Of a stretch of DNA of 64,000 nt, positions 14,697 through 54,233 are shown piece after piece (positions within the stretch are counted from its first letter, which is position 1; each line of letters starts with the position of its first letter). The stretch lies in the NCBI GenBank assembly GCA_036172245.1, contig JAYWIR010000027.1, positions 1,798,001 to 1,862,000 of the forward strand, given 5' to 3'. Source of the stretch: Raillietiella orientalis. Lineage: Eukaryota. Position numbers and translations under genes: made by a program. Under the pieces are notes generated by a model. The model was not told where the DNA came from. It was given only the letters and a program-made list of their open reading frames with translations, and made no database searches.

Positions 14697-14706
14697 AACA
14701 CACACA

Positions 14707-14748: not shown

Positions 14749-14750
<2 letters not shown>

Positions 14751-14838
14751 ACCACCCACCCGCTTGGCCCGAGCGCACCGCAGGCAGCCGCCTGGTCCGA
14801 GCATACTCCATTCGCCCAACCGAACGTGTGCCGTGTAG

Positions 14839-21100: not shown

Positions 21101-24100
21101 GGATCGGCGGACGGTCGTGCAGCAAGCGGCACTCTCATGAGAACAGGAGATCCCGCCAGCCACGCGAAACCCGGATGCGTTAACGGAGGCCACGCGCAGC
21201 GACGTCACTTTTCGCATTCTGTTGTTTGTAACGGAAGCTCATGTCGCTCGTTGCCGCCCATCCGCTTGCGTGGGTGTTCTCCCGCCGCTAGTGGCCATCT
21301 ATAAGTTCGGATCCCATTCCATTTTGCTCATTCAATTTCTACCGCCGTTCGCTGTCCATTCGCCGACCCTGTTCGTGAAATTCGGTTCATCTGCTTAAAG
21401 AGGGTTGTGGTCCCCGCCTCTTCCCCGGGTCCTAGACTGCTTCTAAAATGGCGACCTCTTCGGGTTCACGGAACTGCGAGGTTCCTTTTCTTCTTCTTAT
21501 TGACAAACGAGTCCTTCCGCAGCAGGAGCAGTTGGACCTTGGCATCTAGCAAACAGGGAAACACTACGACCAGCCATTTTCAGTCGTTGGGTCACTCGAT
21601 GCCAGCTGCGTTCCCGACTTCAAACACCAGGAAAGAACGATACGAGTCGATGTCCTCTCTTGCAGAAGAGAGACGAGGTATTGAGGTAGTGCTTTGAAGG
21701 CCAAATCGTGCCAGGAACGTTTCCTCTCGCCACACGGCATAAAGATGAAGCGGCGAATTCCCTCGCGACCATCTCTTGTTCCCCCCACCCCCCGTCCATT
21801 ATTCCCAATTAGAGATTTCAATCCTTGGTGTCCTGACACGATGAAATTCTGATTGAATTGTATTAAATGGTGCCACATTAGCTGATTGTACCAAATCTTC
21901 ATTGTTTTTTGAATTCCTTCAGCTGATTGGACACTTTGTCATCTTGTACAATACGAATTATTTGCAGTTTTCGAATACCGTACCCTACAGCCACAAGTTG
22001 GGAAACGCCCCATGCTAGCCCATCGCACGCGGTGATACGAACTTGTTCTTCTACTTTCCGCATACCTTTTTTGTCATCCCATCCACGGTTTCGCATCCCA
22101 AATGATACTGGATTTCGTTTTTTTTTTAGGACGTTTTTTTTTCTCGGCACACACGCTTTCGAACAATCTTCTTTGAGCCTTCGAGCCTCCTCCTCTGACT
22201 TAAATAAACCTACGTCATCATCGGCTTCATTCGTTTCGCTGTCTTTGGTATCTCTCTACTTCGGTATTTCCCTTCTTTTTGATGGACAGAGGAGGAATTC
22301 CGAAAGAATGTCAAGAGACCCCTCTGTAACATGTTATCTTATTGTAAATCAAAACGATAAACAACTGCACTGCCTGGGATAAAGGATGCACGTCTCCCGC
22401 CTTCTCAAAATGGGCGCGACGCTCAAAGGTCAAAATGAAAATTCCTCTATCGTTTGTATCTCCGAAGTAGGGAACACCTGAAGTAGAGAACCTTTAACAC
22501 CAATGAACTTTTCCCTGCTTTCTCCGAAACTGCTTATGCGTCTGCGCCATCTACAAGAGTGCACGTGCTGCTGTTGGTCAATTTTTCGTGGTGCTTCATC
22601 AAGCAGTGCACTGTCCGAATGCAATGCAACGTGTCCTTCGAAGCAGCTGTAGATCAGCAAAGATGGGTTCTCGATCCTGCACATACCATTGCAGCAACAT
22701 CCGCTTCCTTTGCTTGCGACCAACGACGACAGACACTGCGTCCTCGCGTCTGCGCCCGCCTCCAGCCACGGTCCCTGGCCGCACGAAGAAGCTATCTAAG
22801 AATTGGCTGGGAACCCGAGTTCCAGAGCACCAATGAGGAAGAAAGTACCAGAACGCCCCGATCTTCGTTTGGTTGCCGAAATTCGTTTCGATTCCGGGGT
22901 CGCCCGCATCCCGGGATTCGACAGCGAACACTTCAAATCCGTTGAGCCGGGGTTCCCAGTCTGCCGAAGCGTACCGTAGGAGCGTCTAGTTCCGGACGGA
23001 TGCTGCGGTGGTTGCGAAATTCGTCCGCGGCCTCCGCCGTTTGCAACGCGACGACGACCACATCCCGGACTTCCCGCGTCCGCTACCGAGAGAGTTACGA
23101 CGACTGCAGAGCCGTGCCTTTCAGCCATCTCCGCGCACACCTCAAGCTCTTGAACGAGCATGGATGGAGAGCAGCCGACTTCCCTTGGGTGCCGCCGGCT
23201 CATCTGCCAGATTCGAAATGACCCAGAGTGAGTGGCTTGCTGGCCGGAATGACGCTAAGCGTTACCAGGCGACTTTTCCTGCGCCCAGAGACGCACCCGC
23301 GGAACGCTTTCCTTGTCGAACGGAACGTGTCCGTGCTGCGCCGCCGCCGCTTCCAGGGAGTGTGCTCGCAGGGAGCCACCTTTGGAACCGCGAGGCTCTT
23401 CCCTCTCGTCTTTCTTTGTTCCTCACATGCGCGTAAAAGGGAACCGAAATTTCAGCGCCCCGCGCATCCCCTGAGACCATGATCGACCCAGCACGCGTTA
23501 CGGGAAGGGTAGGGAGGGATCAGACGAGCTCCCATTATTTCAGGCCCGTTGCCCCTTCTCTCATGAAACCGTCTGGTACGGCGGTACATGGTACGGACCG
23601 CACTGATCGGTCACTTAACAAAAAACACCCCGAGAGAAACAGCGCAGGCTCTGCAGCTGCTGAACTGGCGGCGACGGCATCCCCCATCCAAGCAAAGGCT
23701 CGTGGGATTCAGTCTCACGCTGCGTTGGCTTCACCCACAGGTGCATCCGTGGCCGACTCTGGGAACGTTGAGCCAATGGCGAAAGGTGACCGCCTCCATC
23801 GCCGCTGCGGCCTCACTCTCGAAAGAATCTTGACCGGAAGTCGAGGACGGATGCTCGCGAGGACGATCAAGTGAAAGCGACCCTCGGCGGAGAGGGCAGG
23901 TGGCGGACGAGTGCGCATCCTTCTCCTTTCCCTGCGGGGGCACTCAGGAGAGAAAGGTTGTGGAAGCAAGAGGTGGGGAGGGTGTGTCGCGTGGGCCCGA
24001 GACGGGCGGCCTGGGAGCCGCGATTGTTTTCCTAGGCGCCAGGGCCGGCAAACTCTCTTCCCCCGGAACACAAAGTTCAGCTTATAGGGAGAACGGACAG

Positions 24101-27100
24101 GCACGCCTCTCAAGCGGAATTTGTTCCCGCCCGCAGCCGTCGCGACCGAGAGCGAGTCGCCCGATGCCTCTCCGGGCTGCGAAGTGCTTGAAAGGGTTGA
24201 TCACGAACGTGTTCGACGTCGGTCTGCGCGCACCGCGTCGCGCGAAGCACGCTCTTCCTCCCCGCCATCCTCAGTCTCCTTGGTTGCCCTTTTTTTTTTG
24301 GTATGTTTACTGTGCCAACAAACGGCCCTGAGTCACTGGGTGCGAAAGAGCACGTGGGACAGAACAGCCGGCCCCAGCGCGCGCAGCCGCGCTTAAACGC
24401 GCACTTTCCTTTAATTACCAAACCGGATGATGATGACGAGACGGCAAAACAGTCGATAAACAATCTCTGATGGTGGCGCCTCGATCTGCCTTGACGAAGA
24501 AAGGGTTTGCAAAGACGAGCGTTCCGTTTCCAAGGCAGGAAACCCAGCGCAGCACGTTATACGGAAAGTGCAAGAAGCGCTGTCCTCACCAGCGTCACCA
24601 CCGGTCGAAGTGTCGGCGTTCGTCGTGGCAAAGGAAGGTTTGTCAGCCTGTCGCGATAGGGGGCTCATTACGGAAATAAAAACAAGAAAGCACAATTCAA
24701 ACGATCGCGCGCAGATGAAAGCGGGGCTACTATGAACACGCTGCAGCGCATGGTCCAGTAGGGGATACAAGAAAGAAAGAAAAAAAATGTCCATTTGAAG
24801 GCAGTGGGGAGCCAATGAATTGCGTCCTGATTCGCCGCGCCATCAAGGCACCGACCCTTCCGTTTTACCTGAGTCCAGTGGGGCCCGTCTCACCACCTAT
24901 CGCGCAAGTTTGAAGGCTTTTCGCCTCGTTCTGCCGAACTCCGAAGTTGTCATCGCAACCCCGTGGAGGAAGGGCGTACTGGTTCAATTGCTGCCACAGG
25001 AGAAGAGCCTCGGGAAAGGACGAAGCGCTTGGGACCGTGTTCGGGCGCGTCAAAGGGGAAGGGTCTCTCGCAAACACGCCTCCCCCTTCTGCACGGCCTC
25101 GCAATCCCGGGGCACGGCGTGGAAGGGATTTGTCAAGAGCACACCCTGTGCAGTCAGATACTTCCTCTTCGGAGGCAGGCAGCGCAGGCCACTGTGCAAA
25201 CCTCGGCGCAAAAGCAGCGTTGGCATCATGTCGTAGCCTCGGGGCAAGGCGCCCCGAGTCTTTGCCTACGGGAGCGACCGCCAAGACCTCTGGGTCGACT
25301 CCTAAGGATTCAGCTCCTCGTCGGAGTCCTCTCGCTTGTAGGGACGGGAAAGAAGAGGTGCCGATCCGTCCGCGACAGAGCGGGCGGTCTCCCATTTCTC
25401 TGGCTGGCACTGCCCTCCCTGCCGCTGAAGGCACGCAGCGTGTAGCCAAGGGGGTGGAGCAGGCGTGACACCAATTCCGCATTGTTTCCGCTAGGTGAAT
25501 TTTCCCTCGGCGGGCTGGGTGAACGCTGCTGGTCTGGACCCACGTTTTCAATGCGCACGGGAAAAAACATCGTATTCTCTCGTGGTCAAGAGGTTGGGCT
25601 GACGGGCCGGCAGGAGACCCAGAAACTCTCTCCTAGCCAGGAAAGCATCTGCTTCGGGGGGAAACCCAGTGGAGGAACATCACGATGACCGCTGGGCATA
25701 TGGGACGCAAACCCGTAGCAGCCAACCAGACGACGCATCACGTGACGGGCCGCAGGGGATGCCGGCGATCGTCCCGGTGCATGCACGGGCGGGCTTTTGT
25801 TTCTGGAAAAGCTGAAGCTGTGTTCCTCGCTGCCAGCAAGAGACCGGAGACCTCATTAGAGGCGGTGAGCGGCAAGGAGGACCAGTGCTCGAGGTCCAAG
25901 AAGAGATGGACTGCTCAGACTGGGAAACGGAGGACGCGGTCATGGTGGGGCTCCCGGCGCTTTCGCCGTATCCACACATCCATGTTTGAAAGACGTCTCG
26001 CGCCAAAAACCGCGATCGTGAGTACTCCGTCGTCGGCACGACCGCTTGATGCAGGTCTTCCATTGGAATCTTTCGTCGTGGCAATCCTGACTCATGCTGT
26101 GCTTACTTGTCAAATATCAACATATTACGAAGGAAAAAAATCCAATTTTGTGTCAGGAAAAAAAAAAATAAGTACACGCAGGACAGACAACGTAACCACA
26201 ACAGGCGGACACACCAAACCAGCAGTACAACACAACATAAATGCGCGCACGAGTGCACCAGCAGCTGAAGCCCAGAGTGGTGTTTCTTCCTTTTGCCGAT
26301 TCCAGCAATGCAGCCTTTGGAGTCTTTGTCATCAGCTGCTGCAAGCAATAGGCTGCCGCCTCCCACAATGCAAAGATACAGAGCGCGGCAGCAGGGGCTA
26401 AAGAGACCGCAGCTCTCTTGCTTTGCAAACCTGGGTGATTTTCGGAAGTATCTGGGGTCCACTCCCTCTGTTTGGCATTCTTGTATGTCAGCAACCCGAG
26501 AGCTGGCAGCACCGCCCGTCCCTACATCCGGCTCAGAATTTGAGGCGAGAAGCATCCCGAAGGACAGGCACGCATGGAAGTTCGGTTCCAAGCTCAAACG
26601 CGCAAGCGCGCGCGACGCAAAGCGCTGCTCCCTGTTTCTCTGACGTGTCTTCCTCTCTCGAAATAGGTGAGGATGCGATACTCCTGTCTCCCGGAATCCA
26701 CAGCTTCCCCTTCAAGCTGGGTCTCCCACTAGGACTGCCTTCCACGTTCCTGGGAACCTACGGTTGGGTGCAGTATTACTGCAAAGCAGCGCTCAAGGAG
26801 CTGGGCGGTTTGATACACAAGAACCAGCACGTGTTCATAGTGATGAATCCCATTGACTTGAACCTGGAACCTCCGATGCTGGCTGTAAGTCCCAAACCGA
26901 CCGCCGGGGTCTCCGCGCTGGAACCCGTCCATCCGGGTCGCTCCTTCGCCCTTGTGGGGGAATGCCTGTGGAAGCTGGCGTTCCGCTCGACTCGGAAGGG
27001 CGGTAGTCGAGTGCAGGAGCGGACGCCAACGCACACCGCGCTCTTGCTTCACCCTTTCACCTTCCCGCCTCCCTCCCCGGTTCTACTCCAGCCCCCAGTT

Positions 27101-30100
27101 TTCCCCCTACACACCCCAGCCAACCCCGCATCTCCGTCCTCTCGTTCTAATCCGCGCTCTCGTGGCGGTGAAACGATCGCTCGGTGGGATCGCGGCACCC
27201 GACGTGCCGCTTCCGGCCGAAGAGATTTAAGCAACGGATGCCTCCCGGGGGCTCTTGGATTTCTCCCTTTCCTTTCGCAGAGATGTCCAAAATCCTCGTG
27301 CTTTTGTCGACAGCATGGGAAAGTTCTTTGCCAACACGAGCGTCTTAATGGCCACTGCGCCCGTTCCCTTCTCTCTTAAATTCCCCTCCGCCGTGTTTGC
27401 CGAGTGAGGCAAGCGGTGCTTTCTCCTCACGTCGTCTGTCTCCGCGTCTTTGACCCGCGCCTGCTGGAAGCCTGTCGGTTTCGAAGCCGATGGGAATGCC
27501 GCCGCGTTGCGCCGGACCCGAAAAACTCAGGCCGGCCTTCTCGACCCTGCCTCTTTTTTTGCCCGCTCGTAGGATGGGACTCGCCGTGCTCCGTGTCGGG
27601 TTCCCACGCGATTCTTTGGCGCATGAACCAAAGGTGCATTGGTTCCCCCGAGTAAACGTCTAGCGAGGAAAGGCTGGGAGACACACGCGTGCCTTTTCAA
27701 CCACGAGTCGCAGTCCCTTTTCTTCTTCGTCTTTTCCCATTTCCTTGCACCCACGTCGCATCCCTTCGATGGTCGGCTGAGGACGACTGCGCGCTCGCCT
27801 GTGCGAGCGCTCTTCGCTCCTTCGGAGCGGCGGCAGCTCTCCGTTCCTGTGACCTTCAGCATGCAAGTGGCTTGCGTTTTCCCCGCTCTTCCTCATCAGG
27901 CTCTCGCTCATCACTCCGCCCGACGTGCGACTCCCCCCCCCATCCTGCTTCCTCTTCCGCCTCTTCGCACGGCAGTCGGCAATCGAAGTCCGCTTCCCGG
28001 TAGAAACCCACGCGTCGGGACTCCCCGTTCCTTTCTGCCTCCCGTTAACCCCGCAGGTCACGAAAACTCACTTCCGAATGGTCGAATCGGCCACTGCTCG
28101 ACCTTCCATCCGCTCACGTCAGCTGGGCGCAAGCGCTCCGCTAGGATGAGCGCTTGGCGTGTTCGGAGGATGGCCCCTCGCCAACGTTCCTGATGGCGGG
28201 TTTGGATCGGTGATCAGGACGATGGGATAGTGTCATCTTCGCAGCAGGGAACAGTCGAGCTGAAGGTCGGGAGGGGCACACGAGCGCTGGGTTGCTGGAG
28301 TCGCTGCTTCCGAAGGCCTCCTCCTTCTTTTCCTCCTTCCTAATTAAAGGGAGGCGGTGCAAACGAATCACCTCGTGAGGAGAGAGCCTTGCGAAGGGAG
28401 CCATCCCGACGAAGGGGAAAATTCGGCAGGGTGGGATTGACTCTCGAAACTTCCGGAAACGGGAAAGACCGCGGAGAAGAAAACAGCAGGAGCGAACTGA
28501 AGCCAGGCTGCCAGAAGAAAAGAACACGCCTGATGAAGGCCGGAACAATGGGGGTCGATCTTCGGGTCCTTCCAGGAATCAAGGAATGGAGAGTTCTACC
28601 TCCGGTCGTGCAACGGAGAGAGGACCCCCCATCGTGGGGGGCCCCTCCGGTTCGTTCAGATGGAGTAGGAGATCACTCCAGATGTGTTGTTAAAGGACCC
28701 CCCGTTGCAGGGGAGGACCTTCCGAGTCGCGCTGACGGAGCAGGTGCGTTGCCACCTCTCCAGAGAGTGCAAGGAAGCTAGAGCGATCGATCCCTGCGGG
28801 GAAGCAGCGCCCCTTCTGAATTTCGGAAGCATCCCTTCGGGGTTCTCTTCAGAGGAGTGAACAGGAGAGGTTCCCTTGAGGGTTCCTTCCGGAGAAGAAA
28901 TTCCCACTCGCGGATCCATTCCGGTTCCCTTCGGAGAAGATGAAATGGAAAGGACTGCACTCCCCATTACGGGGGTGTCCCTCTGGAGAGAATGCAGAAG
29001 GAGATTCCCTTCGGGGTTCCCCTTCGGAGACAACCAGGGTGGGAGGTGAGATCCCCCCCGTCCGGGGGGATCCCTCCCCAAGAGTGAGAGGCATGGACTC
29101 CGAGCCCTTCCTGGATTTTCCAGCCGAAGCGTGTACAAGTGAACAGAAAACCGGAAAAAAAAAAAGCTGGAAGGAAAAAACAGCCAAGACATAAGAAAAA
29201 AGAACCCAAAGGATTTCAATCATCTTAACTACAAAGCCCGCGTCGGAGGTTTTTTCTCGCTCTAGGTGAAGGGTGGGAGGGGCACTGCGGATGCGCCCGC
29301 TCCTTCGCTCGTCCGTGCTTTTTCCAGGAACCAACGGGAGGCTGCGCCTCCTTCCCTCCGGATCTCGAATCGGGCAAACCGATCTCGCAGCGCACAGTTC
29401 CCTTGGATGCGCCCGCCCTTTCACGCGAAGTTTCAGCGTCTGCCTTGCACCACCCTCCCGCAGCTGCGAAGTCTTCCTCCCGCGCCAGACGATGGCGGCG
29501 GCTGTGATGATGCCAGCGGTAGCAACAGCATCGCCAAGCGCTCCTTTTTCCAGAAGTAGCTGCTTCTTTGCTCTTCTCGGAGTTGGGTGGTCGTCATTCA
29601 CGGCTTGAGGCCCTTCGACATGTCATCCCAGCTAGCGACCTCCCCCCCCTCCAAGCATAGCTTCAGAGAACGAAAGGATGTGCACGTGTGGGGAGGGGCG
29701 CAGCAAGTGGGGAATAACCAGCGCCATCGGAAGAGATGGTTCAAGACGAGCAGGGATCGTCTTTCCGTCGTCACGGTCTCAATGCTCTCACTGGAGGGCA
29801 GCACATGCATCGGAGGAGAGAGCGCAGCAGTTCCGCGCCAACGCGGGAGCCCCCTTCGCTCCCGGCTGGTGGGGGACTCTCGAACGAGACGGCGATGGTG
29901 TCGCCATTTTCCCCAACAGCCTTGCGAGTCCGCCCACCGTGTCTTCGAAGAACGTCCGTGGGAAGAGCGCGCACACGCTTTTTCCGGTCTCTCGCGATGG
30001 TGAGTTGGTCTCGAATGTTGGTGCCTGCGCCACCCCCTTTCCCACCCTGGGCGCGCCAGCTACCTCGAGGAGGCCTCACATGCCCCCATCTTTCCACCTA

Positions 30101-33100
30101 GAGCCCTCGTCGCAGGTTTGTCCTTCGCTTTGAGTCCTCTTACTCCAGGCTCACTGCAGCGCCTTCGGGCATGCGTGTCCATGAAGATCTCCCGAAACAC
30201 GAGCGTCACGCCCATCCTCGGAATCCGCCCCAGATCTTCGAATCCCTGCAAACCCCTTCGTCTATATCGAAGGGTACTACTGGGTTGGCTGCATCGGTCT
30301 CCACGAAGAGGAGGGAAACTGCCCAACTGTCTTCCCTCCTTTCTCCCCCACTTGCACCTTCAGCTTGATGCCCTCCCTCGCTGCCCCGCGGCACACACCC
30401 CGACTCGAATTGGCGGTGGTCTCACGGAGGCATTTTGCTCGTGTCACGGGTTCGCACTGTTGCCGACCTTTGAACGTACTTCCTCTCCGTCGGCAGCTTT
30501 GGCGCCCCTTGCGTTTCCGCGCTCGGACGCTACGACAGCGAGAGAGAATGCTACCGTCTCCGTCTCGTCCCCAGGATCCTCTACCCTCTCTCCGCCTGGG
30601 AAAAAGGTGGCGGCAGGAGAGCCGGGAGCTCCGGGAAGGGTCAAGGGACCCTATCCTCCGCGCCGAACGGGAAGCGATCTCTCCGCTCGATAGATCGGGG
30701 ACATTAAGCGAAAGCGCCCAACTCCCCGCCACCGCCGCCCGGGGAGTCGGTCGGGAGACCCGAGGAGAGCTGGGGGCAACTCAGCATCCCTACTGCAGAC
30801 GGACCTGCCGGGACCACCTCTCCGGGAAGAGGAAACGGCGCGCCTCTGGGGGAACCCGTTGCGAGGGAAGGAGCCTGATCACCCTCCGAGACGGCTCCAT
30901 CCGAAAGGAGGGGAGAGAGTGATTCGTCCGGACGGCTCCTTCGCCCCTACGGGGAAGGCGGGTTGGTCGCTGGCTCTCGGCGCCAGAGGGAAGTGGGTGC
31001 GGCGAGGTCAAAAGGAGCGGACGGGTTCTCCCGGAAGAGCGCGCCGGAGATACGCGCGCATCCAGCCCTAACCATTCCCTTCCGTCTCCTCCGCTTCCGC
31101 TTCAGCCCCAGTGTGCCCCCTCCCTCCGCACATCCTCCTCCAACCCCACTCTCCTTCCCAGTCACCCCTCAGGCTGTCCCATTCCGCCTCCCTTCCCTTC
31201 ATCTTCTCGCTGGTCCCACGGTACCCTCAAGGCACCACCCCACCTCACCCTTGCCAGGCACCGATTTTGGAGCCGTTCCCACGGTCGACGGATGAGGAGC
31301 GCGTCTCCAGGGTGCTCGGGCGATGCCCCAGCGGGTGTCTCCCCCCTTTCCCCCGAGGAGGGCAGCTCGATATCTTCCGCCGTTCCAGGACCCGTTCCAC
31401 TGCGAGATCAGCCACAGTCTGGGGACGAGCTGCTGGAAGCCGGGGGAGGTCAACTGCCACGTGCGGCTGGACAAGGGCGGCTACGTGCCCGGGGAGTCGG
31501 TGCGGATCTGCGCCACGATCACTAACTGCAGCAAGGTGTCTATCAAGAGAACCAAGGCCTCGCTCTCCGAGGTGAGTCGCGCTCCCGTCTCCCTGGCGAC
31601 CCCGTGCCCTCGCTTCCACGGCGACGGACGGTGAGCCTCTCCCCCCTCCCGCCCCCGTTCGGCCCGAGAGGAACTGGCCTGACGCCTCTCTTGCAGACCG
31701 TGCAGTACATGGCGCAGAACAGGGTCATGGAAACGGAAGTGAGGGAGCTGAACTCGCTCAGCAAGGGGAAGATCCGGAGAGGGGAGGTAGCCGAGTGGAA
31801 GGACGAGCAGCTGCGCATCCCGCCGCTGCCCCCGACCAACCTCAGGGGCTGCCACGTCATCCGCATCCAGTACGACGTCTTTGTGAGTACCTAGGCTTTT
31901 TTTGACCTTCCCTTCCGGCGCGCCCCTCGAGGCCCCGCTTGCCCTTTCGGCCGTTGCGCCGGGAGGGGAAGGGAGACCGGGGACAGTGCCTCGGCATTTG
32001 TCAGGGTTCGCAACGCCGAGACCTCCGATTGCCGCCTTACTGATGCTTCCTCCGGCGCGCATCTCGGGTTGCCCAGGCAACGGCCTCTAGGACGGGGAGA
32101 GCCACCCTGGGTCCGCGCCAAGGGCAACCTTGAATCGGAAGAAGGGCAGGTGGTGGTGGAATCCCGCTACGCTTCCTGGCGCCCTGCACCGCGCTTTCGA
32201 ACCTGGCAACGCTGCTTCTTCGATCCTGCTCGTTAGGATCGTCCGTACCGACTCATGGGGCGGCAGGGGCACTGCCCGCGCGCGCCCGATGGGGTGTTAT
32301 GCGCAGCGCTCCGAGTCCCGTGCTCGCCGATGCCCGCGGCGGCGACTCGCTGCAGCCTCCCACGCCTCAAACGTGCGAAACGGTGTGCCGGGGATGGGGT
32401 GGGGACCCTGGTCCCAGCGAGCGTGGGTCCTTCGCGGGGGCAGCCGGTTCGACCAGGAAGCTTCATACGGCGAGCTGATGCGCGTTTGCTTTTGCGGCTG
32501 CGTCCGCATGGCAACCAGGGCGACCAACAGCAGCGTGACTTTCAACTCGTGGCTTCTCGTTGGTGCGCGCCCTCCCTCAATCGCCGCGACGACGTTCAAT
32601 TCGTTTCATTTATCCGCCTACTTGCTGGCCTATTTTCTTTCGTACTCGCTTGTTCTTTTTTTCCTTCTTTTCTACTTCGATGTATTGATTTATTTATCCT
32701 GATGCGTGCGGCACGCGTTTTTTCTCCGGTTCTACTGGATCCTCCACCTGATGAAAGAGGCGAGCCCAGCAGCGCCTCCCCCCGTTTTGCGGTTTCAATT
32801 CCTCCCTAAACGAAGACGCTGCTGCAAGGAGACCTGAGGCTCCGTCTCCGGTCTCCTTGCAAACCCCCCATGTCGCTGAGTCTCGGAACTCGTGGGACCC
32901 AAGGCGGCGGGCGTGTCAGTCAGTGGGGCGACCCGCAAAGATCCACCCCTGCCTCCCCATGGTTTCCAGAAATGGTGGACTCAAAGGAGACACGCTGTTT
33001 CAAGGAACGTGGATTTTTTTTTTCTTGGAGCTCGGCGAACGTCCGCGCTCCGGGCGACTTCCGTGGAAGTCGAGCGGGAAGACGTTCGTCCGTCCGTCGC

Positions 33101-34403
33101 TCGCCTCCTTCGCGAAGGAGACAGAACATTCTCTCCTTCTCGAGGTCGCTGCTCCCAAGGTCACCGGAGTGTGTTGCCTGTCCGCCGTTTCTCGAGGGGC
33201 AACACGTCGGCCGCCTGTTTTTTGCCGTCGTCTCCGCTTCGGGGCTGCGACGTCCGTCCACCCTGATCCCAAGGCTTGCCGAGGGGATTCCGATGTGGCG
33301 CCTGGCCACTTCCCGAAAATAACCGACCCCTTCCTGGCGAAACATCTCGGGCCGACCCGTGCGTCTAGGGAGGCGCGCGGAGGCTCCGATGCTGCCAACT
33401 TGCCCGTCGACCATTCTGCGGCGAGCCGCCTCGCAGCCACCGCTGCCGCCGTTCTCGACCGCCAACTTTCGCTTCCGAAGGTGGGCTCGCTGGTTTCGCG
33501 GTGCGCAGCCGCTTCCCGCCAGCCCCTCCCTCTCTCTCTCCGCCGCACCCACCCATCCACCATGCTGACTGGTTCCCTGCCCAAGAACACGGCAGGTGGG
33601 CAGGGCGAGCAAGGGTGAAGAGAATCTCCGTTCAAATCTTTGAAAGTCTCCTAATCCAAGGGGGGGGGATCGTGCATGCAAATTCAAAACATTCCATAAA
33701 GCAATAGGCAATGGTACACATCCATGTGTGATATATACACACATATATACACTTACATACATACCGATATAGATACTTGTCAGTTGAACTTGATTCCATA
33801 AAACAGTAGGTGACAGTGCATTTATATACATATATATATGTGTGTATGTGTTGCATATACAATGTAAATATGAGATACAAATGCAGAATTTCTCAAAACA
33901 ATAGATAGCATGCACAGATATGTGATAAAAATATGTGATATGAATTTAGACGTGACGTATAGAAACTGCAGCCCGTCTTGGAACGTCACGCATGTACGTA
34001 GCGCGTACACGGAAGAGCCATTTTCGATCTTCCCGCTGCCTCGACGCGAGATCGCCACGGCCTCCCTCCTCCTCCTCGCCCCCAAAAGGGGGTGCACCGC
34101 CCCTAGCGCAGCATTTCTCCCGGTGCGAACGGGGTCGCTGCGCTCGACGCACGCGCCGCTGAAAATAGCCCCTTGGCTCGCCACGGCTGCCAGACGGACG
34201 TTCGCCTGAAAGCGTATCCTGCCCACTGCATGCCCATCCTGCGCCTTTCGTTGCAGTTCTCCATCGAACCGAAGAACGTCGAGAAGGTGATCAAGCTGCA
34301 GCTGCCCATCCTCGTCGCTACGTACCCCAACCGGAACTCCGATGGAACTTTGAAAAGACACCAGAAGAATCTTTACCCGGCCACTCTGCCAGTTTTCCGA
34401 TGA
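15117..34403 (+). CDS. Arrestin domain-containing protein (alpha-arrestin, Drosophila Vdup1-like, TXNIP/ARRDC family)
   Basis: Exons 15117-15237, 17200-17313, 26667-26884, 31389-31571, 31697-31882, 34257-34403, all GT-AG and phase-consistent; 969 nt = 322 aa. Motifs KLLKFLILFDNENLLYFPGQ, DKENYIDFRMRLLG, SPGIHSFPFKLGLPLGLPSTFLG.YGWVQYYCKA, LDKGGYVPGES, IPPLPPTNLRGCHVIRIQYDV, KLQLPILVATYP cover the Arrestin_N and Arrestin_C folds. Confidence 0.93.
28529..29100 (+). repeat. Dispersed repeat family copy (about 28529-28800) followed by a degenerate 30-60 bp tandem array of short hairpins
   Basis: Shares the identical 21-mer GATGAAGGCCGGAACAATGGG and about 200 nt of colinear similarity with 55609; then about 6 units resembling TTCCCTTCGGGGTTCCCTTCGGAGAAGA between 28832 and 29100. 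Confidence 0.8.
33691..33950. repeat. AT-rich low-complexity island with (AT)/(AC) microsatellite in arrestin intron 5
   Basis: Abrupt AT-rich block; ATTCCATAAA.CA.TAGG repeated at 33691 and 33793. Confidence 0.55.
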
Positions 34404-35644
34404 GGGGCTCGGAACGTGCTGGTCTCCCCCGAGGTGCTGGACGAGGAGGCGGACAGAGGACGCTCCGGTCGTCTTCGACCTACGGACTCGTGAAGAACAC
34501 TCCCCTACTGTTTACAGAGTGCGCTGCAGCAGCAGGAGAGAAGAGGGGGTGCAGCTAGGTGTTTCCCGCGGAGCGGCGTCACGTTCCGTCCCACTCACCG
34601 CCTCCTACGCATCCCTGCGCAGACGTGACGTTCTGATGCTGAGAATCGCCTCCAGGAACGAACAGTGCTCGCGTATGAATCTGTGAATACACGACTGCCA
34701 TCTTCTCCCGGACCTCACATTTGCCTAGCTGTACTCTCCACCCCCCCGCTGCCTCTCGCTTGCCGCCAGACGCACGGAAGGCTACCCGCCCACCCAGCGG
34801 ACTGGACAACCCGGCAGAGACGCCTGAGGCGAAAAGTGTATGTGCAACCCTTGGCGGTCGGTTGATGGAAGCAAGCATCATCGACAACCGTGACTTCCTA
34901 ACGGGACTGCCAAGCCAGCGGCGCACCGGCCTAACCTATGCGATTTCATCAGCTGGCTCCCCACCTTGGCAGGTTCGCCGATTCCCTTGAGCGGCGTCTG
35001 TGGTGGTCGTGAAGTCCCAGGCAGCGCACAGCATGCTTGGTCCTCCCAGGAGGGTAGAGGGAAAAAAACCCTCAAGTGTCTTCTTTAGCCTTCCCTTGCT
35101 CGATTTTCATCCACTCCTTGGAGAAAGGGAGGGACGGAAATGGGGTGAGCACAGTGGTCACTTCCAGGGAAACAGACAGAAATCAGCGGATGAATGAAGA
35201 CTCGGTGGACCGGGAGCAGAAGCGGGCAACGGGAATTCTGTTGCCTTGTCGCCAGGCAACGGGAAGTCGCGAAATGAGAGCCAAGGAAGTCGACAAATCC
35301 GAGAGCCAACTCTGTACGGTTCTGTGGGGAAGGATTTCCCAGTCCACCACGTACCACACCCACAGAGGAGGGGAAATTCTTTTGATAAAAAGCGGGAAGG
35401 GAAGCTGAGGATGGAAGCTCGCATTTCTCTGCTGCATTTCCTCATTCTGGTTGGAGCCCCCTCAGTTCCTCTAGCCCATCCCTTACCGCATCCCTTCTTC
35501 ATGAGATGACTTGAACAGTACCTTCAGCCAGTCTGGGATGCTGGCGTAGCCGGCATCGTTCCTCCAATGATCCCTTCAGCTGTAATGTTATTTTCTAATG
35601 TTAAAGCCCTCCTGCATATATGTAAACTGTACTATTATTTTCTA

Positions 35645-35650
35645 AATAAA
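35645..35650 (+). terminator. Probable polyadenylation signal (AATAAA) of the alpha-arrestin mRNA
   Basis: First AATAAA I found after the stop at 34403, at the end of an AT-rich UTR-like stretch (TGTA motifs, 35581-35644). Confidence 0.6.
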
Positions 35651-35652
35651 AA

Positions 35653-35790
35653 ATCTGTTCTTATCAGCTTAATATCTGATACGCCACCTATCTCGTGGCC
35701 AGCATATTAAACTACTTTTTGGAAGTGGACGGGATGCTTGGAGCTTGCTCCTCTCCTGTCGCGGGTTGACCTGGTATTGCAGTACAGCCA
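35653..35790 (+). pseudogene. U2: U2 snRNA-derived sequence, 5'-truncated (U2 pseudogene or variant)
   Basis: ATCTGTTCTTATCAGCTTAATATCTGATACG...ATATTAAACTACTTTTTGGAA...GGAGCTTGCTCC...GGGTTGACCTGGTATTGCAGTAC matches metazoan U2 from about nt 38 onward; stems IIa, IIb and III can fold. The first ~37 nt and the 3' strand of stem IV are missing, and the Sm site reads ACTTTTTG. Confidence 0.9.
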
Positions 35791-37172
35791 TATTCCCGAC
35801 GAGGAGGCCGCTCTTACCGTCCCCTGCGCTTGTTCTGCAGTATGGAAAGGAACAGCAAAGGTTGCCGCATGTCGGCGCCTCGCCGCCTTCCATCTCCACA
35901 TTCCATTTGAATATCAAGCATTTGCATACGACGTGTGGCCACGCTCCGCTCTTCATCCACTCCTGAGATCAGTGTTGGGCACTGCTAATATTTCCGTGGC
36001 ATGCAGTGGGTCATCCGGGAACGTGAAGTCGACTTCCTTGCTCCAACTACGTGAAGCAACGGTCGGGGTTAAGTTCCAGAAAGCAGTCAGGGCACTCTTA
36101 GGCGGGGCGACGGCCTGAACTTGCGTTCTGGGCACGGCCATCGGAACGAAGGCTTGCCAAAAGTTGCATATGGCAACCTATCCTCCAGGGGCCATGGAGA
36201 GCTCAGATGGTTTACCCGCACACCCTATACAAAATGCCATGGTACGCCGCAGACAGTGGTGACCTTTTTTTTTTCCTGCACTTGTGATATATATTCTTCC
36301 ACCTGCCTGGACACAACACGAAATTGCGATGTGCATCCATTCCTAAATTCTTCGCGCCACCTGATGTTCACATGCGCATGTGCTGGATAACCCACCCCAA
36401 GACGTGTAGAGTCTGCCCGTCGAAGAGTAACCTACGGCCTGTTGCAACAAGAAGGTCGGCTCCCGCTGCGATCGAAGACATCCCCCAACTTAGGGTGAGG
36501 GCTGTTGCGTCATCGAAGCAAGCCTGATCAAAAGAAAGAGCAGAGCGATGAACGTCCGCTTGAGCAAAACCTGGTGGTCTCTGCAGAAGTTTCAGAACTC
36601 ATCGGTAACCGGTAAGAACCTCCCTTTGCCGTCTGAGGGTGGTCACGAGCAGAATCATCCACAGGAGATGGCAAGTGATGGCGCTTAATACAGCGCGTGG
36701 ATGAAGGATCAAAAGAGGGAAAAAGCAACAGGACAAACGGAGGATTACGTACGCTTCCTCTGAAGAAAAAAAAAAGGCTCTGAACGTGGTCGAGAAATCG
36801 AGGGAGACGCCCTAATGCATTCGTTTGCCATCCCTCTCAAGGGGTCAATCGATCCAGTTTGCCCAGATTTCGGTCGCAAGTGACAATCACGTGAGTTGTG
36901 TGCCTTTTCTTGACGCGGCGATTCATTGAGAAAAAATATCATGGCTTTGCTGCGTGCGGAACAAGAAAAAACCGAAAAGTGCAAATTTCTAATCGTTTTC
37001 TCGCCAAGCTCAAAACGCCTTGCAGCTTAAACACAGTGCTCATTTCGAAACGGTGAAATGCAGAAACGAGGACGCAAGTGGATTGGTGGTCCACGGTACG
37101 AACACCAACGCAGAATCAACATCTGCTGGAACACTTCGTTGCTAACAACCTTTATACTGACTCACAGAACGC

Positions 37173-40100
37173 TCAATAAAATTTGGGCTTATGGGAAAGA
37201 CCGAACAAGGTCACGGCGGCAAACATGACCACGAGGGAACAGGTCACCATCAGCAATCCAACAGCATCGAAAATGAACTTTGGAGCAAAAACGTTCCACG
37301 TCATTAGATGTCGACACAGAACCGCGGCAGCACACATGCTGGAAACGACCTGCAAAACAAGAGACAGCAGCTGTTAATCTGAAACGAGATCGCTTCCCCC
37401 CCGGGTCATGTTATCTGGATCGAGATCGAGACATTTGGAGAGGCTGCGACGCAGCAGTGGGCCCCATGGCACCGCGGGAATCGAGTTGGGTTCACGTAGG
37501 TCCCCCGCTCAGCGGAAGTGCGAGTTCCCGTGCTGGGCGCGGCTAAACAGACTCTGTGATCTGCAGCTCCGGACGGCCGAACTCGGAAAAGATCGCAAAA
37601 TGAAAATGAAACGGGATGCACTTAGCTCGAAGACGAAGCGAAACATATGTGATGATAAAATACATCGAAACTTTGCATTAAAGTTTCATTGTATTGGATA
37701 CACAGGCCAAGGCAATCGGAGGGTTCCTGAAGATTTGGCAGTGATTAGAGATGCACCAGAAAAGGACTGTCCTTTTAACAAGGAAATACTCAACTCGTTA
37801 GCAACCGAATACCTCGGGGATGCCCAAAGGATTAAATAATATCGTTAATCTTTCATTTCTTGTCCTTTTTTTTTTTGAAGGAAAAAGATGTCAGACACAC
37901 GAAAATCGTCTTTTGTTTTCTGAGAGGTGCCTGCTCTAAACAACTAGCTTTTAAAAGAATTTGCTTGGAAAATACAATCAATTATCTACAGTTCTAATAT
38001 TTCCATTTCTCACTGCACCTTCACATCTTGAACATTGTGCAGGAAATGCAATGTTGCCTTTAAGGGCACAGACACATCAGATTGCGACAAAAAATAAAAA
38101 GGTCTGATTTCAAATGCACGGTGTAAAGGAGAACACCCATTCAGTAAATACAGAAGAAAATGCACATCATTCTGAGTAGGTACAAACCTTCAAGTTGCAG
38201 CAGATCAGATAGCTGAAGGACAGCTTTGCCAGCCCCAGCACAAAATCACGTGGCGCTTCATTGTCAGAGACATCTTCAGCTTTGGTTTTCGGATTCTGGC
38301 GCCTCCAGAACCTTGCACTGTCATTTATTGCTTTCCTGAGTAATGATGGGCTCCATATCAACAGAGGAAATGCAAAAATGCAAAGAATGTGTGATGCATA
38401 AATATGCATCAATACAAAGAAAGCGGATACTGCATATGTAGTAAAGTCTCCTGAACTGCAAAAAAAAGCAGCTTTCCATGGGATAGATGGGATGGTAGTC
38501 TGATGACCTAGGGCATAGAAGAAGTGACATGCAAGTAAGTACAGGCTTAAGGCCCAAGGCCAAATTAAATGGGAACTGGTTCCTAAGATGATACACACTA
38601 ATTACAAACAGGACACAATTTGGTCACTATACCTATCTTTCTTTCTTGCAAAAATATATACATATACAAAAGAATGAACAACTTAATAGTAATCCAAAAC
38701 TGCAACATAATCACTGCATTTGATGCAGATAATAGTAAAGCAAATATTAGGTACAACTGAAATGCATGGTTGAATTTTTCTTGCTTCAAAATAATACACA
38801 TACCTGTAAATAAAATCGCAAGTAGGAACAAATATTGACTTCTGTTAAAGCTCTGTGGGAAACTGTGGATTCGCATGAGTTATGGGATGCACATATATGT
38901 GACATGCACATGCACTTCAAACGTTTTCTCTGAACAATTGATGCTGTGGTTTCCACAATGAATTGAACAATTAAAAGAAAAGCTAGATGATGCTGTCTCA
39001 CATGTGTGCTTTGTAGAAACTCAGCGACTTGTGAAGAATCAAGAAAGCAGTAGCACAGTACAAAAGACATGAAAATGTACAAGCGATAGTTTTTCCATCT
39101 TGACTCAGCATACTCTTTAGAGGATGCACATCTGACTGCCAACCAGTGATCTCCAACAAAAACAACAGTGACCGATACAAGTGCCAGAATGAGCTGAAGA
39201 AGAGAACCGAGAGCTTCACCAAACAATGCTGTGAAATATTTAAGGATGTCAAAAGGAATGCAACCTTTTTGCTCATCTCTGCAGCTCTTGAATTTCAAAG
39301 TGGTGCTGACTACAACAATTGCAGTAATCACCAATGCACTTACTGAATAGCATCTTTTTTTTCCTGAAATATTATGTTTCTTGTTTTGTAGCATCCAGTT
39401 TGTACTAATGTAATAAATTTTCCAAACAATGAGCATACTGCTAAGTAGGTATGAAACAGTAAAATCCTCATAGATTACAAAACTATTTGAAAAGGATGCC
39501 ATGCAAATGAATAAGAGAATCAGCGATGCAATAGTAAACACGGAATTTTGATGAACTTTTGTTCCAAGAAAAGAACTAACCAATTTTTTAACATATATCA
39601 TCAAACACATCAAAAGTACGAAAAGTACACAGTAATGCAGATACTGTATGTCATACATAAGTTCTAGCATCTGTATAGATAAAACCACAGTAAGAGGAAC
39701 AAGTGAAAATAAAGATACAGACATTGTGACAGTGGCAGTAATGAAAACCACATTCACAATCAGCAAGGTTCCAATACCCTCTAGTACGAACTTGAAGTTA
39801 AAAGTTGCCCAAACTTGTCGAAACAATTCTTTCACTTCAGAGAAGTAATTTTCTAATAATATCATGGTTGCTTCAATTTCTTCAGTAGTTAAATTTTGGT
39901 GTACTGAGGTGTTTAATATAGCCACAATAGAATCCTCTGCTTTAGAAAGTGATTCGAATCCTTGATGCATTGATTTCCTTTCATAAGCTAAATACTGAAT
40001 CAACTGATGAAAATTCGCTTTGTATGCAGCAAAACGTTCCAAGAGACACTCCTGTGCAAAAAATTGCTTATTTATTTTATCTGAACATGGAATCAACGAT

Positions 40101-41176
40101 GCAATGACTGAGCCTATGTTTGCAAAAGGTATTGGTATCCCAAGCAGCCAAGAAACAGTGGCACACAAATCTAATTGGAATGCTTCCTCAGAGAAAGAAC
40201 CTTGATCATAAATTGGAAAGATAGGTAATGAAGAATAAGCAAATAAAACCGCTGATACTTCTGAGGCACTATCACCACCATGATCACCTGCAATGCTTGA
40301 TGTTCAAATGCTTTTATAATTCTGATCATACCTTTCTCAGTCATGCCATGATCACTAACAACAAACAAGATGGTTTCATTTGATAATCTGTTTATTATCT
40401 CTCTTAAAATCAATTTACTTTTAATATCAAAGTACCAATGCTGAAAGTTACCTGATAAAATGATCCACTTCTAATAATTTTCTGGTCATTTCACTATGCA
40501 GAGGTCCATATTTGTGGCCACAGTGATCAATACCAAGTAAATGAGCAATAACTGCATCATAATGATTTGTTTCAATTAGTGGAAATATGTGCTCGCTCAC
40601 GTAACGGTCAATTGTATCCACATCCAAAAAATTGAAAGATGGATATGCTTTCGAAAAATCAAACTTGTTGGGAAATAGCGTTATCCATGTGTCATCACCA
40701 AGAAACGCGATTTTTTTATTATTTTTAAAAAGTTGGTGAACTAGGTTATCCTCTTCTACTTCATAGCTTTGGAAGTTGGAACTGATGTCAACAAAAGTTG
40801 GCAAACTGCCGGTCATGAGACCTTTGATCCTCTGCATTGTGGTTGTTGGTGAATCTGCTACGAATTTCAACAATTTCGCATTTCTCGGTTTACTTCTGGC
40901 CAATTCATCAAGTACACGAAGTTTGTTCGTATAGCGCTCCGGGGACTTCTTTTCGGACTTTGCCACAAAGTCATACCTTAATCCATCCACTACAATGAAA
41001 ATAATTTTTTTAAATGGTGTCCTATAAGAAATATTCCCGCCATACACTGGAGTAGCACTTTTCTTGGTGACTACATTCTTCTTCAATAAGAATCCCTTGC
41101 TAAATATGTATACTTCAAAAACAGACACAGCACCAAAAAACATCAACAAGAATAAGTACGTCCACTTGTGAGGCAT
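37173..41176 (-). CDS. PIGO: GPI ethanolamine phosphate transferase 3 (PIG-O/Gpi13)
   Basis: Exons 41176-40452, 40402-40332, 40287-38804, 38756-38633, 38582-38188, 37349-37173; 2976 nt = 991 aa. Motifs VDGLRYDF, ADSPTTTMQRIKGLMTGSLPTFVD, GDDTW, HLLGIDHCGHKYGP, SDHGMT..GDHGGDS, FSNSFVIYE, FFYALGHQTTIPSIPW, RHLMTWNVFAPKFIF; multiple transmembrane segments. Confidence 0.94.
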
Positions 41177-42351
41177 CTCAAGAACTATCCATATGCATTT
41201 CAATTTCAGGTTATGAGACAAACCACGTTAAATCTCGCGTAACGAAACGACACCCTTATCATTATTTTTCAAACTTTTGATGGCATGTGGCATTCCAGAG
41301 ATTGCATTCTAAGATCGCCAATGCGTTCCACCTTGGCGTAGTGGAAATACGAATAGAACGCATGACAGCCGTCGTCCTGGATGCCTTGCGTTTCCCGGGT
41401 TCCCATCTCGGACGACCCCACCGTAGGAGCACCGCTGGAAACAGAAGCGCACGTGTACGGAATCTTTTCCACAAGGTGCCCCCCCCCCATAAAAAAGGGT
41501 TGAAAAATTTCCTTCCCCAAATATCATCTTCGTTTATGAATTGCCTTCTAATGCGAGAAACATTTGCAGTCTAACTGAAATATTTAGGAAGTATCTATCA
41601 AAAATTGGCATACCACAAATTTATTCGTGCATAATGTTCACTAAATAACATCGTCTAAAGGCAAATTATATATCAATACTCTTTTTTTAAAAAAAAATCG
41701 CCAACTTCATAACCATTTTTCCTTTGATAATCGCTTCGTATTCCAGGGATCACACCAAGATTAGCTGATTCTGATTTCTCTAGTTGTTGTTGTTGTTATT
41801 ATTATTATTATCAACTCGCGAACAATTCACAACTAAAATTGGCCCAGGAAACAAAAAACAACCTTTGATTTACGGCGTTGTGTTTACAAGATAAGTACAC
41901 AAAGATAAATATACAAAGAAAAGGAAGGGTAGGAAGCAAGTGTTTCCAAGAAGCTAAATACACAGAGAAAGTTTGAAAAAATTTGACACCAAACTGGAAA
42001 AGCTTGTACCTCTTGAAAAGTCAATAGAAGACTTTTAAACTGAAAATACAGTTCAAGTTTTTCAAGAGTGCAGTTATTGGAAAGACAATTCATATAAGTG
42101 ATTCGTGCATTATTTCTATATCCGTTTGTTTATTTAAAGGTACTGTGTGGAACAACAAAAAATTTAAATTATGTTCAGTCTTTCTACTCGCAGACGTTAC
42201 TGTGGTAAGTTATCTTTTTTTTTAGCTTTCATTTGTTTATCCTTGGTTCCATTTCAGCAATTTTAATAACAGTTCCTTTCACAAAAAGCGAATAAAATCA
42301 CATCCATGATGCATCTTAAACATGACACAGTCAAATTCAGTTTTGAGCTCT

Positions 42352-54036: not shown

Positions 54037-54233
54037 AATTTGAGGCTTATAATTTCCATTAAAGGATAATAAAGTGAACTGTAGTTTATGAAGTACTTTG
54101 AAATTGAATTTTGCAGGCAAAATAAAAGGAACGAAGAAGGATTGATACTATCTTTAAATATAATCTCATATATCTGCTTCATAAACTACAGTTCACTTTA
54201 TTATCCTTTAATGGAAATTATAAGCTTCAAATT
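54037..54233. repeat. Long inverted repeat: 57-bp arms (1 mismatch), 83-bp spacer
   Basis: 54037-54093 is the reverse complement of 54177-54233 except at one position. Confidence 0.92.

Follow-up and report, generated by a model that had tools for sequence, protein, structure and literature searches.

How does the body of a U2 snRNA gene, deprived of its 5' end, come to lie directly behind an AATAAA hexamer downstream of an arrestin-domain gene? This arrangement was found in the window, by which is meant the whole 64-kb stretch of DNA analysed here. An earlier note on the same DNA had regarded it as a U2 fragment fused to the arrestin poly(A) signal, and had offered as explanations a co-opted 3'-end processing element, a U2-derived SINE or a young pseudogene. 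Our analysis of the sequence argues that the segment is very probably the 3' junction left by a non-LTR retrotransposon that is specific for U2 snRNA genes. Most likely, therefore, the window holds an ordinary instance of a phenomenon already described, namely a U2-site-specific insertion that leaves a headless U2. The features that bear on the question are as follows.

About 15117-15239, 17193-17315, 26660-26884, 31377-31574 and 31682-31888, + strand: earlier arrestin-domain exons (tblastn)
34239..34403, + strand: final coding exon, with stop codon, of the arrestin-domain (ARRDC-like) gene (tblastn homologues, Pfam)
35581..35653, + strand: AT-rich sequence that closes with AATAAAAAA, presumably the 3' end of a Utopia-like element truncated on its 5' side (GC, junction)
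35645..35650, + strand: AATAAA hexamer, most likely element tail, which the arrestin-domain gene may also use as its poly(A) signal (sequence read)
35654..35815, + strand: remnant of a U2 snRNA gene, running from nt 39 to roughly its natural 3' end (Rfam U2 and alignment)
35715..35722, + strand: mutated Sm site, CTTTTTGG for ATTTTTGG (alignment; A to C at 35715)
35761..35815, + strand: stem-loop IV remnant with loop motif ATTGCAGT kept (alignment, alternative fold)

A headless and decaying U2 remnant

The Rfam U2 model (RF00004) matched the + strand at 35618-35804 in a cmscan search, scoring 87.8 bits where the gathering threshold is 46 (E 5.2e-16), and U2 was the sole Rfam family to exceed its gathering score in the 64-kb window. 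U2 identity in this alignment starts at AUCUGUUCU, model positions 1-33 being laid over a forced, mismatching stretch, and the first U2 base present is nt 39 (TCTGTTC), at position 35654 and in sense orientation. The copy is thus missing the 5' 38 nt of U2, i.e. the U6-pairing region and the GUAGUA branch-point box. A direct reading of the junction agreed with the earlier description, in that the hexamer at 35645-35650 is followed by AAA (35651-35653) and then by TCTGTTCTTATCAG from 35654. The stems that had been named are likewise retained, as judged from the sequence and the cmscan alignment (IIa TATCAG/CTGATA, IIb GCCAC/GTGGC and the ATATTAA element), together with stem III with its GGAG-CTTG-CTCC and the loop IV motif. 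While the U2 body is present as reported, its end had been placed too early, at 35800, and homology runs to about 35815.

The alteration of the Sm site was also borne out, CUUUUUGG being found where AUUUUUGG was expected (35715), and 90% or more of the 29 intact U2 genes to which the copy was aligned keep the A at this position. Deviations were seen at 5 of the 84 columns conserved in at least 90% of these genes, and in stem IV the 3' arm has been altered by three substitutions (35791-35793) and by an insertion of 9 nt. Fold prediction indicated that the stem IV region refolds with part of the AUUGCAG motif paired (z = -0.29), and the U2 fragment as a whole folds no better than shuffled sequences (z = -0.88). 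The copy therefore fails as a functional U2 with regard to its 5' end with the branch-point box, the canonical Sm site and an intact stem-loop IV, and its sequence is consistent with a dead, decaying remnant.

The absence of the U2 head, which the earlier note had pointed out, extends over the 64-kb window, as established by three null searches. The Rfam model gave no second U2 match in the window at E<=1, the 38-nt head pattern found no match in it with up to 3 mismatches allowed, and a real head, taken from locus L105, reached a best local alignment score of 22 against a shuffle maximum of 25. Similarly, the claim that target-site duplication and tail are lacking around the copy held in a k-mer comparison and a run search. 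No 6- to 12-mers were common to 35590-35656 and 35770-35900, where about 1.2 shared 6-mers were expected, and no A or T run was found 3' of the U2 end. Both marks of a LINE-1-type processed pseudogene, a 3' poly(A) tail and a flanking target-site duplication, are accordingly absent here. As to the head itself, it may have been lost through deletion of target at integration, through a later deletion, or through joint mobilisation of tail and body to an ectopic site.

The breakpoint coincides with a known retrotransposon insertion site

Two non-LTR lineages, Utopia and Keno, have the boundary between nt 38 and 39 of U2 as their fixed insertion site (Kojima and Jurka 2015, PMC4640811). According to the parts of that paper that deal with these elements, Utopia is a member of the NeSL clade and encodes a restriction-like endonuclease, Keno encodes an AP endonuclease, and U2 resumes at nt 39 downstream of Utopia, a site that Keno shares. 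In its S1 Fig, Utopia-1_IS ends CAATAAAAAA|TCTGTTCTTATCAGCTTAATATCTGATACG, and further families there have AATAAA-bearing tails abutting TCTGTTC. The window junction reads AAATAAAAAA|TCTGTTCTTATCAGCTTAATATCTGATACG, with AATAAAAAA immediately before U2 nt 39, only six A's at the junction, and the AATAAA at the very end with neither a spacer nor a long poly(A). The same source describes arthropod Utopia as inserting without target-site duplication and reports it for 21 arthropod species, Daphnia pulex among them; the missing duplication and the arthropod host of the window were thus both counted in support of a site-specific insertion.

These features could be accounted for by an element that nicks the U2 gene between nt 38 and 39 and is inserted in sense orientation by target-primed reverse transcription, its 3' end landing directly on TCTGTTCTTATCAG. 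The downstream U2 body would then be headless, cut off from its promoter and lacking the U6-pairing region and the branch-point box. What the window keeps of such an element would be a short, 5'-truncated non-coding tail (about 35581-35653, ending AATAAAAAA), and U2 nt 39 to about 190 (35654-35815) would then have decayed, with the Sm site mutated and stem IV broken.

The AT-rich stretch of about 72 nt is taken to be derived from the element. GC content falls from 0.5-0.7 to 0.15-0.45 around 35580, and the 5' boundary of the tail (about 35581) is uncertain, as it was placed by this fall alone. Since nt 38/39 together with AATAAA is a known junction, which is reproduced at independent loci (see below), the hexamer is most likely the retrotransposon's own tail and not an arrestin signal onto which U2 was fused. 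Searches for coding remnants were negative throughout. No RT or endonuclease Pfam match occurred in all 187 window ORFs of at least 110 aa, no Exo_endo_phos or RVT_1 domain was found in the window, and neither a CCHC motif nor a convincing PD..(D/E)xK motif was present in 33900-35652. In tblastn searches of the window, six element proteins from loci L131, L133 and L134 gave a best E of 0.059, and three AP-endonuclease ORF2s a best E of 0.5. Another idea, that the GC-rich 1.2 kb separating the arrestin stop from the tail is decayed element coding sequence, was rejected on the same negative Pfam, motif and tblastn searches. With no RT or endonuclease remnant, the element is therefore deduced from the tail of at most about 72 nt and the junction alone. 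Severe 5' truncation predicts that coding sequence will be missing, which bars us from speaking of an element but permits an element's footprint.

The same junction recurs in other genomes

A scan of metagenome contigs with the U2 core yielded at least 130 loci from many eukaryotes mixed, of which 122, among the matches listed, had at least 40 nt of upstream sequence. Among these 122 loci, 108 carried a head, 3 a variant head and 11 were headless. An AATAAA lay within 40 nt upstream of TCTGTTC in 8 of the 11 headless copies among the matches listed, against 29 of 2210 windows farther upstream in these same loci (1.3%) and 2 of 102 intact genes. In locus L103, a U2 head ending GTGTAGTA is followed by an 86-nt insert ending AATAAAAAATTTAA and then by the body from TCTGTTC, an arrangement that directly displays a 5'-truncated insertion in the U2 nt 38/39 site.

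Genome contigs scanned for an A-run followed by a U2 body provided 4 loci with 6-kb flanks (L131-L134). ORFs with Exo_endo_phos, RVT_1 and zf-RVT were present upstream of the junction, in the same orientation, in all four. They are intact (1155-1161 aa) in L131, L133 and L134, where they stop 278-623 nt 5' of the junction, and fragmented in L132. All four are of the AP-endonuclease type, with AATAAA followed by a spacer of 10-25 nt and then by A10-A22. The U2 head is kept wholly or partly in L103 and in the array L132-L134, unlike in the window. The tail of the window showed no significant similarity to the tails of the 11 headless loci and the four long-flank loci (15 in total). The 24-nt junction of the window was absent from the metagenome contigs, and a 23-nt generic junction from the genome and viral contigs; the viral contigs contained neither the U2 core nor the pattern of an A-run joined to the body. 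Switching of the RT from U2 templates to polyadenylated mRNAs, or artefactual cDNAs in metatranscriptome contigs, had also been considered as a source of such junctions; this reading was dropped because of the far-side head in L103, the published site and the element ORFs of the long-flank loci.

Alternative origins

An ordinary U2 pseudogene, that is a 5'-truncated reverse transcript or DNA captured at a break, might have come to lie beside a native arrestin poly(A) signal by chance, with no site-specific element involved. The lack of element coding sequence and of a head, and a tail unlike any other tail, would fit such an origin, but it needs two coincidences, a break exactly at nt 38/39 of about 190 and an AATAAA a few nt away. 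The hexamer occurs in just 1.3% of the 40-nt windows and before 2 of the 102 intact genes among the matches listed, whereas the nt-39 start with AATAAA recurs in 8 of the 11 independent headless copies among those matches and in the published junctions. A LINE-1-type retropseudogene, moreover, would show the poly(A) tail and target-site duplication that are missing here, and we regard a chance origin as highly improbable. The earlier suggestion of a pseudogene thus stands insofar as the copy is a non-functional U2 remnant, and missed the probable cause, a U2-site-specific retrotransposon with its nt 38/39 junction. A U2-derived SINE resembling SINEU is less credible still, and scarcely worth entertaining. 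In its favour, the sequence comes from U2 and lies apart from any U2 array, but no second copy is present in the window. SINEU elements have a 5' head taken from U1 or U2, end in a 3' poly(A) tail and were found in crocodilians only (Kojima 2015, PMC4494074); the SINE proposal fails because the window copy has neither head nor poly(A) tail.

The mechanism could also be the same and the source different, a Keno-like AP-endonuclease element or an undescribed U2-site lineage in place of Utopia. Keno uses the identical 3' site (PMC4640811), the AP-endonuclease type was seen in 4 of the 4 long-flank loci inspected and is therefore common in public data, and a 72-nt tail is too short for lineage assignment. 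Against this, the hexamer of the window is terminal with six A's, as in the published Utopia tails, whereas the AP-endonuclease examples have a spacer and A10-A22; the AP-endonuclease element proteins found no match in the window; and the host list in the same paper gives Keno for frogs, fish, lancelet and hydra, not arthropods (PMC4640811). We consider such a source unlikely, and favour Utopia, with its restriction-like endonuclease, because the hexamer sits directly at the end, with no spacer and no long poly(A), in an arthropod host.

Possible use of the hexamer by the arrestin-domain gene

The upstream gene had been called an arrestin gene, and arrestin domains are indeed present, Pfam Arrestin_C and Arrestin_N both being matched; the assignment was refined to an arrestin-domain (ARRDC-like) gene. 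Its exons were placed by tblastn with the homologues P0003, P0005, P0007, P0008 and P0016, the best named matches of the arrestin-domain exon being amphipod and lepidopteran, in keeping with an arthropod host, and its stop codon (34401-34403) lies 1.24 kb upstream of the AATAAA/U2 junction.

The hexamer is a plausible candidate for the poly(A) signal of this gene. Past the stop at 34403 no canonical signal comes before it, and it is the sole + strand AATAAA between 28343 and 37175, with two TGTA motifs upstream and a CA 15 nt downstream. The roles of TGTA and CA motifs in 3'-end processing are textbook knowledge. Exaptation may thus have been superimposed on the insertion, the gene using the donated AATAAA, with cleavage in the first 10-30 nt of U2 and with UCUGUUCUU serving as downstream U/GU-rich element or loop IV binding SNF/U2B''. 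However, no SNF-type hairpin survives in the U2 remnant, and the fragment does not fold above shuffles. Arthropod genes often use variant hexamers, which makes other 3' ends possible. We therefore hold the exaptation to be conceivable but doubtful. It is compatible with a retrotransposon origin, and the contest concerns present function only. The more specific proposal of a co-opted SNF-binding 3'-end element found no support, since stem IV is broken, the region refolds at the above z = -0.29 with its motif part-paired, and the whole fragment remains at z = -0.88. A reading that joins origin and use can also be framed, in which tail and U2 body came to the locus together, as a single unit, instead of originating from a U2 gene resident there; read-through of an element within a U2 gene would have led to ectopic integration of a 5'-truncated copy, after which the arrestin-domain gene would have adopted the AATAAA as its sole canonical poly(A) signal, its pre-mRNA being cleaved in the U2 remnant. 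We regard this combination as rather improbable.

With the retrotransposon origin preferred, a headless U2 that begins with nt 39 and follows an AATAAA-ended sequence would be read as a retrotransposon footprint and not as a new RNA element, and such copies could offer an inexpensive way of locating Utopia- or Keno-type elements in genomes that lack annotation. Beyond annotation the importance is slight. Should the arrestin-domain gene truly end at the hexamer, it would be another case of a transposon-donated poly(A) signal.

Comparison with known systems

The window resembles Utopia, as characterised in the relevant parts of its description, in the resumption of U2 at nt 39, the sense orientation, the missing target-site duplication and the arthropod occurrence. 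The tail, with AATAAA and A's directly on TCTGTTC, is as in Utopia-1_IS, a comparison made by eye only, and headless U2 remnants are the usual by-product of such elements. It differs in that Utopia encodes, in one ORF, zinc fingers at the N terminus, then RT, and at the C terminus a zinc finger with a PD..D/ExK endonuclease, none of which is in the window, and in that the arthropod families described keep U2 nt 1-38 on the 5' side, whereas the window has no head. In oomycete families, the U2 head is lost upon integration (PMC4640811). The window copy, furthermore, stands alone between two convergent protein genes, the arrestin-domain gene and a GPI-transferase-like gene, and not in a U2 array.

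With SINEU the window shares a U2-derived sequence spread by retrotransposition, but SINEU, as published, retains 32 bp from the 5' end of U2 together with a poly(A) tail, whereas the window holds a body without head or tail. Keno, as described, meets TCTGTTC at an identical 3' junction, and its tail likewise bears an AATAAA. Its ORF2, with N-terminal AP endonuclease and RT, and its poly(A) tail are missing from the window.

R2 and other target-specific elements have a precise 3' junction and variable 5' junctions with target deletions. 5' truncation is frequent in R2-type elements, and dead halves of the target gene remain. The insertion logic appears to be the same in the window, the difference being that the target of R2 is 28S rRNA and the target here is U2.

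The headless U2 piece and its gene neighbourhood

Read directly, the window carries AATAAA at 35645-35650, followed by three A's and by TCTGTTCTTATCAG from 35654. In a cmscan search (Rfam 15) of the 64-kb window, U2 (RF00004) alone exceeded its gathering score: the + strand match at 35618-35804 reached 87.8 bits (gathering score 46, E 5.2e-16). The alignment was good solely from AUCUGUUCU on, with no match in the stretch forced onto model positions 1-33. Stems IIa, IIb and III were kept, as were the ATATTAA element and the loop IV motif, and the first A of the Sm site was replaced by C. No second U2 piece was found in the window by a permissive Rfam scan (E<=1), and no further copy of the region was present within it. 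A 38-nt U2 head pattern had no match in the window at up to 3 mismatches, and a real 38-nt head, from the metagenome locus L105, aligned no better than shuffled sequence (best alignment 22, shuffle maximum 25). The search for a target-site duplication found no k-mer of 6 or more common to the 5' and 3' flanks, and no A or T run followed the U2 end. The earlier note, which had described AATAAA joined to a headless U2 with these stems and loop IV retained, an altered Sm site, no head elsewhere in the window and neither poly-A tail nor target-site duplication, was thus accurate in its observations.

The upstream neighbour is an arrestin-domain (ARRDC-like) gene with Arrestin_C in two exons and Arrestin_N in a third (Pfam). 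One arrestin-domain exon retrieved 27 homologous proteins, the best named being from an amphipod and from Lepidoptera; the host is accordingly an arthropod-like animal. As the homologues align to 8-9 residues from their C-termini, the stop codon at 34401-34403 was taken as the end of the coding sequence. Downstream lies a convergent gene, which we take to resemble a GPI ethanolamine-phosphate transferase (PIGO/PIGG type), and the U2 piece sits in the one intergenic space that the two genes share.

Genes flanking the U2 piece
~15117-15239, 17193-17315, 26660-26884, 31377-31574, 31682-31888, 34239-34400, +, arrestin-domain gene exons (tblastn of homologues)
34401-34403, +, arrestin-domain stop codon
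38170-38601, -, 144-aa exon, convergent gene
38789-40303, -, 505-aa open exon, convergent gene
40451-41227, -, Phosphodiest-domain exon, convergent gene (E 3.5e-05)

The arrestin-domain stop is followed 1.24 kb later by the AATAAA at 35645. No other + strand AATAAA occurs from 28343 to 37175, and within 2.7 kb past the stop it is the one canonical signal; arrestin-domain transcripts may end at this hexamer. The sole ATTAAA in 28343-37175, at 35706, is inside the U2 piece. On the - strand, the convergent gene has an AWTAAA site at 38324-38329, the next one below being at 32689. Within the 9-kb arrestin-domain intron, a - strand ORF at 21902-22255 encodes an EF-1 guanine-nucleotide-exchange domain (EF1_GNE, E 1.8e-12) and could represent a nested gene or else a processed copy.

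Elsewhere, GC-rich (0.55-0.66) and AT-rich (0.32-0.37) blocks of several kb alternate along the window. Very long T and A homopolymers (up to ~70 nt) and an (AC)n-(A)n tract occur at 2965-3037, 14696-14756 and 17045-17087. A TA/TG-rich palindromic low-complexity tract at 33725-33870 matched mir-3149 and mir-297 on either strand at 35 bits, below the gathering score of 100; these matches are almost certainly compositional. An AT-rich, near-perfect inverted repeat at 54037-54233, whose 57-nt arms are 98% complementary and separated by 83 nt, has the appearance of a small foldback or MITE-like element, and the GC-rich right end holds an ankyrin-repeat ORF at 60546-61598 (-) (Ank, E 1.3e-15).

Headless U2 copies in metagenome contigs

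To provide intact comparison genes, metagenome contigs were searched with the conserved U2 core, yielding at least 130 loci. Among the matches listed with at least 40 nt upstream (122), a normal head was present in 108, a head that was variant or artefactual in 3 and no head in 11. AATAAA stood within 40 nt upstream of TCTGTTC in 8 of these 11 headless copies (the exceptions being L007, L046 and L070), several of the 8 having a short A-run in between. Among the same listed matches it occurred in 29 of 2210 40-nt windows farther upstream (1.3%) and upstream of 2 of 102 intact U2 genes. Set against this background, the frequency shows that the architecture of the window recurs across unrelated organisms. 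Locus L103, the only one among the matches listed with a separated head, has its U2 head, which ends in GTGTAGTA, parted from the body, which resumes at TCTGTTC, by 86 nt that end in AATAAAAAATTTAA. This locus explains the architecture: something with an AATAAA-bearing 3' end inserts in sense orientation between U2 nt 38 and 39.

Two headless copies (L064 and L100) carry GTA between the A-run and TCTGTTC, placing the junction ~3 nt more 5' (U2 nt 35/36); a family whose nick is shifted, or microhomology during priming, may account for this. In another locus (L108) the U2 fragment is preceded by what we take to be a transposase library adapter, a library artefact that was assembled into the contig.

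Full-length elements at the same U2 site

Genome contigs were scanned for an A-run joined directly to the U2 body, a pattern that intact U2 genes cannot match. Four loci were recovered (L131-L134, flanks up to 6 kb), on contigs that are filed under bacterial MAGs but carry eukaryotic U2 genes and arrays, and are evidently eukaryotic DNA binned into prokaryotic genomes. All four have a same-orientation non-LTR retrotransposon upstream of the headless body. L131, L133 and L134 encode an intact ORF2 (1155-1161 aa; Exo_endo_phos, RVT_1 and zf-RVT) whose end lies 278-623 nt short of the junction, and an ORF1 bearing a zinc knuckle is also present in L133 and L134; in L132 the same three domains are spread over several broken ORFs. 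The tails comprise AATAAA, a spacer, A10-A22 and TCTGTTC. These elements are of the AP-endonuclease type and Keno-like, Keno and Utopia being two non-LTR lineages specific for nt 38/39, and their ORF2s, 30-57% identical to each other, represent several families. In the L132-L134 array, the element 5' ends adjoin partial U2 heads, truncated at ~nt 20 and ~nt 27, and a neighbouring repeat holds an intact U2 gene; L131 had no head within 6 kb. L133 and L134 (one MAG, two contigs) represent two U2-site element families in one U2 tandem array of ~2-kb units (ORF2 57% identical; ORF1 64% over 130 aa).

State of the U2 body and remains of an element

The window U2 was aligned with 29 head-bearing loci, the 30 closest in the similarity ranking, among loci listed, less one with too little flank. 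It deviates at 5 of the 84 columns with at least 90% conservation; in the 29 intact genes deviations range from 0 to 7, with 0 in 17.

Deviations of the window U2 from conserved columns
35715, +, Sm-site A>C
35791-35793, +, three positions, stem IV 3' arm
35807, +, one position

U2 homology extends to ~35815, and stem IV has a 9-nt insertion. The predicted fold of the fragment is no more stable than those of shuffled sequences (z -0.88), and the stem IV region adopts an alternative hairpin in which part of the AUUGCAG motif is paired (z -0.29). The earlier note's suggestion of a co-opted RNA element with a preserved SNF/U2B'' site is thus unsupported, and the body is a dead, mildly decayed remnant.

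No reverse-transcriptase or endonuclease domain was detected in the 187 window ORFs of at least 110 aa (Pfam). In the three + frames of 33900-35652 a CCHC knuckle was absent, and the single PD..ExK-like string was isolated and lay within low-complexity sequence. When the six proteins encoded by the L131, L133 and L134 elements were compared with the window, the best E was 0.059, and the tails of these loci matched A/T runs only. At ~35580 the GC content drops from 0.5-0.7 to 0.15-0.45, and the element remnant therefore probably spans 35581-35653. This tail has no detectable similarity to those of the 11 headless loci among the matches listed.

Origin of the junction and comparison with Utopia and Keno

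The window segment is most likely the footprint left at the 3' junction of a U2-site-specific non-LTR retrotransposon, an already known explanation. A U2-derived SINE, another of the earlier note's options, was unsupported on comparison with the described SINEU, as was a classical processed pseudogene, given the lack of a target-site duplication and of an A run after the U2 end. Within the retrotransposon explanation, target deletion at integration or a later deletion could have removed the head, or the element tail and downstream U2 could have been mobilised together to this site without it.

Kojima and Jurka 2015 (PMC4640811) describe exactly such insertions at U2 nt 38/39. There, Utopia is a lineage with a restriction-like endonuclease, specific for one U2 snRNA gene site, with a precise 3' boundary and variable 5' boundaries; Keno is an unrelated AP-endonuclease lineage with an identical 3' site. 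Utopia is reported from 21 arthropod species, including Daphnia pulex, Ixodes scapularis and Strigamia maritima, its arthropod families producing no target-site duplication. Disrupted U2 genes outnumber intact ones in Phytophthora and Nasonia, and for oomycetes the paper infers head loss by target deletion at integration. The S1 Fig junctions read ...CAATAAAAAA|TCTGTTCTTATCAGCTTAATATCTGATACG for Utopia-1_IS, ...CTAATAAAAGTCAA|TCTGTTC for Utopia-1_AMi and ...GTAATAAATCC...CAACA|TCTGTTC for Utopia-1_ACa. The window junction, ...CTAAATAAAAAA|TCTGTTCTTATCAGCTTAATATCTGATACG, has the same downstream U2 sequence as Utopia-1_IS, and its tail resembles that of Utopia-1_IS by eye. With the hexamer directly at its end and only six A's, the window tail has the form of the published Utopia tails, in contrast to the AP-endonuclease tails of L131-L134; this form and the arthropod host favour Utopia as the probable source lineage.
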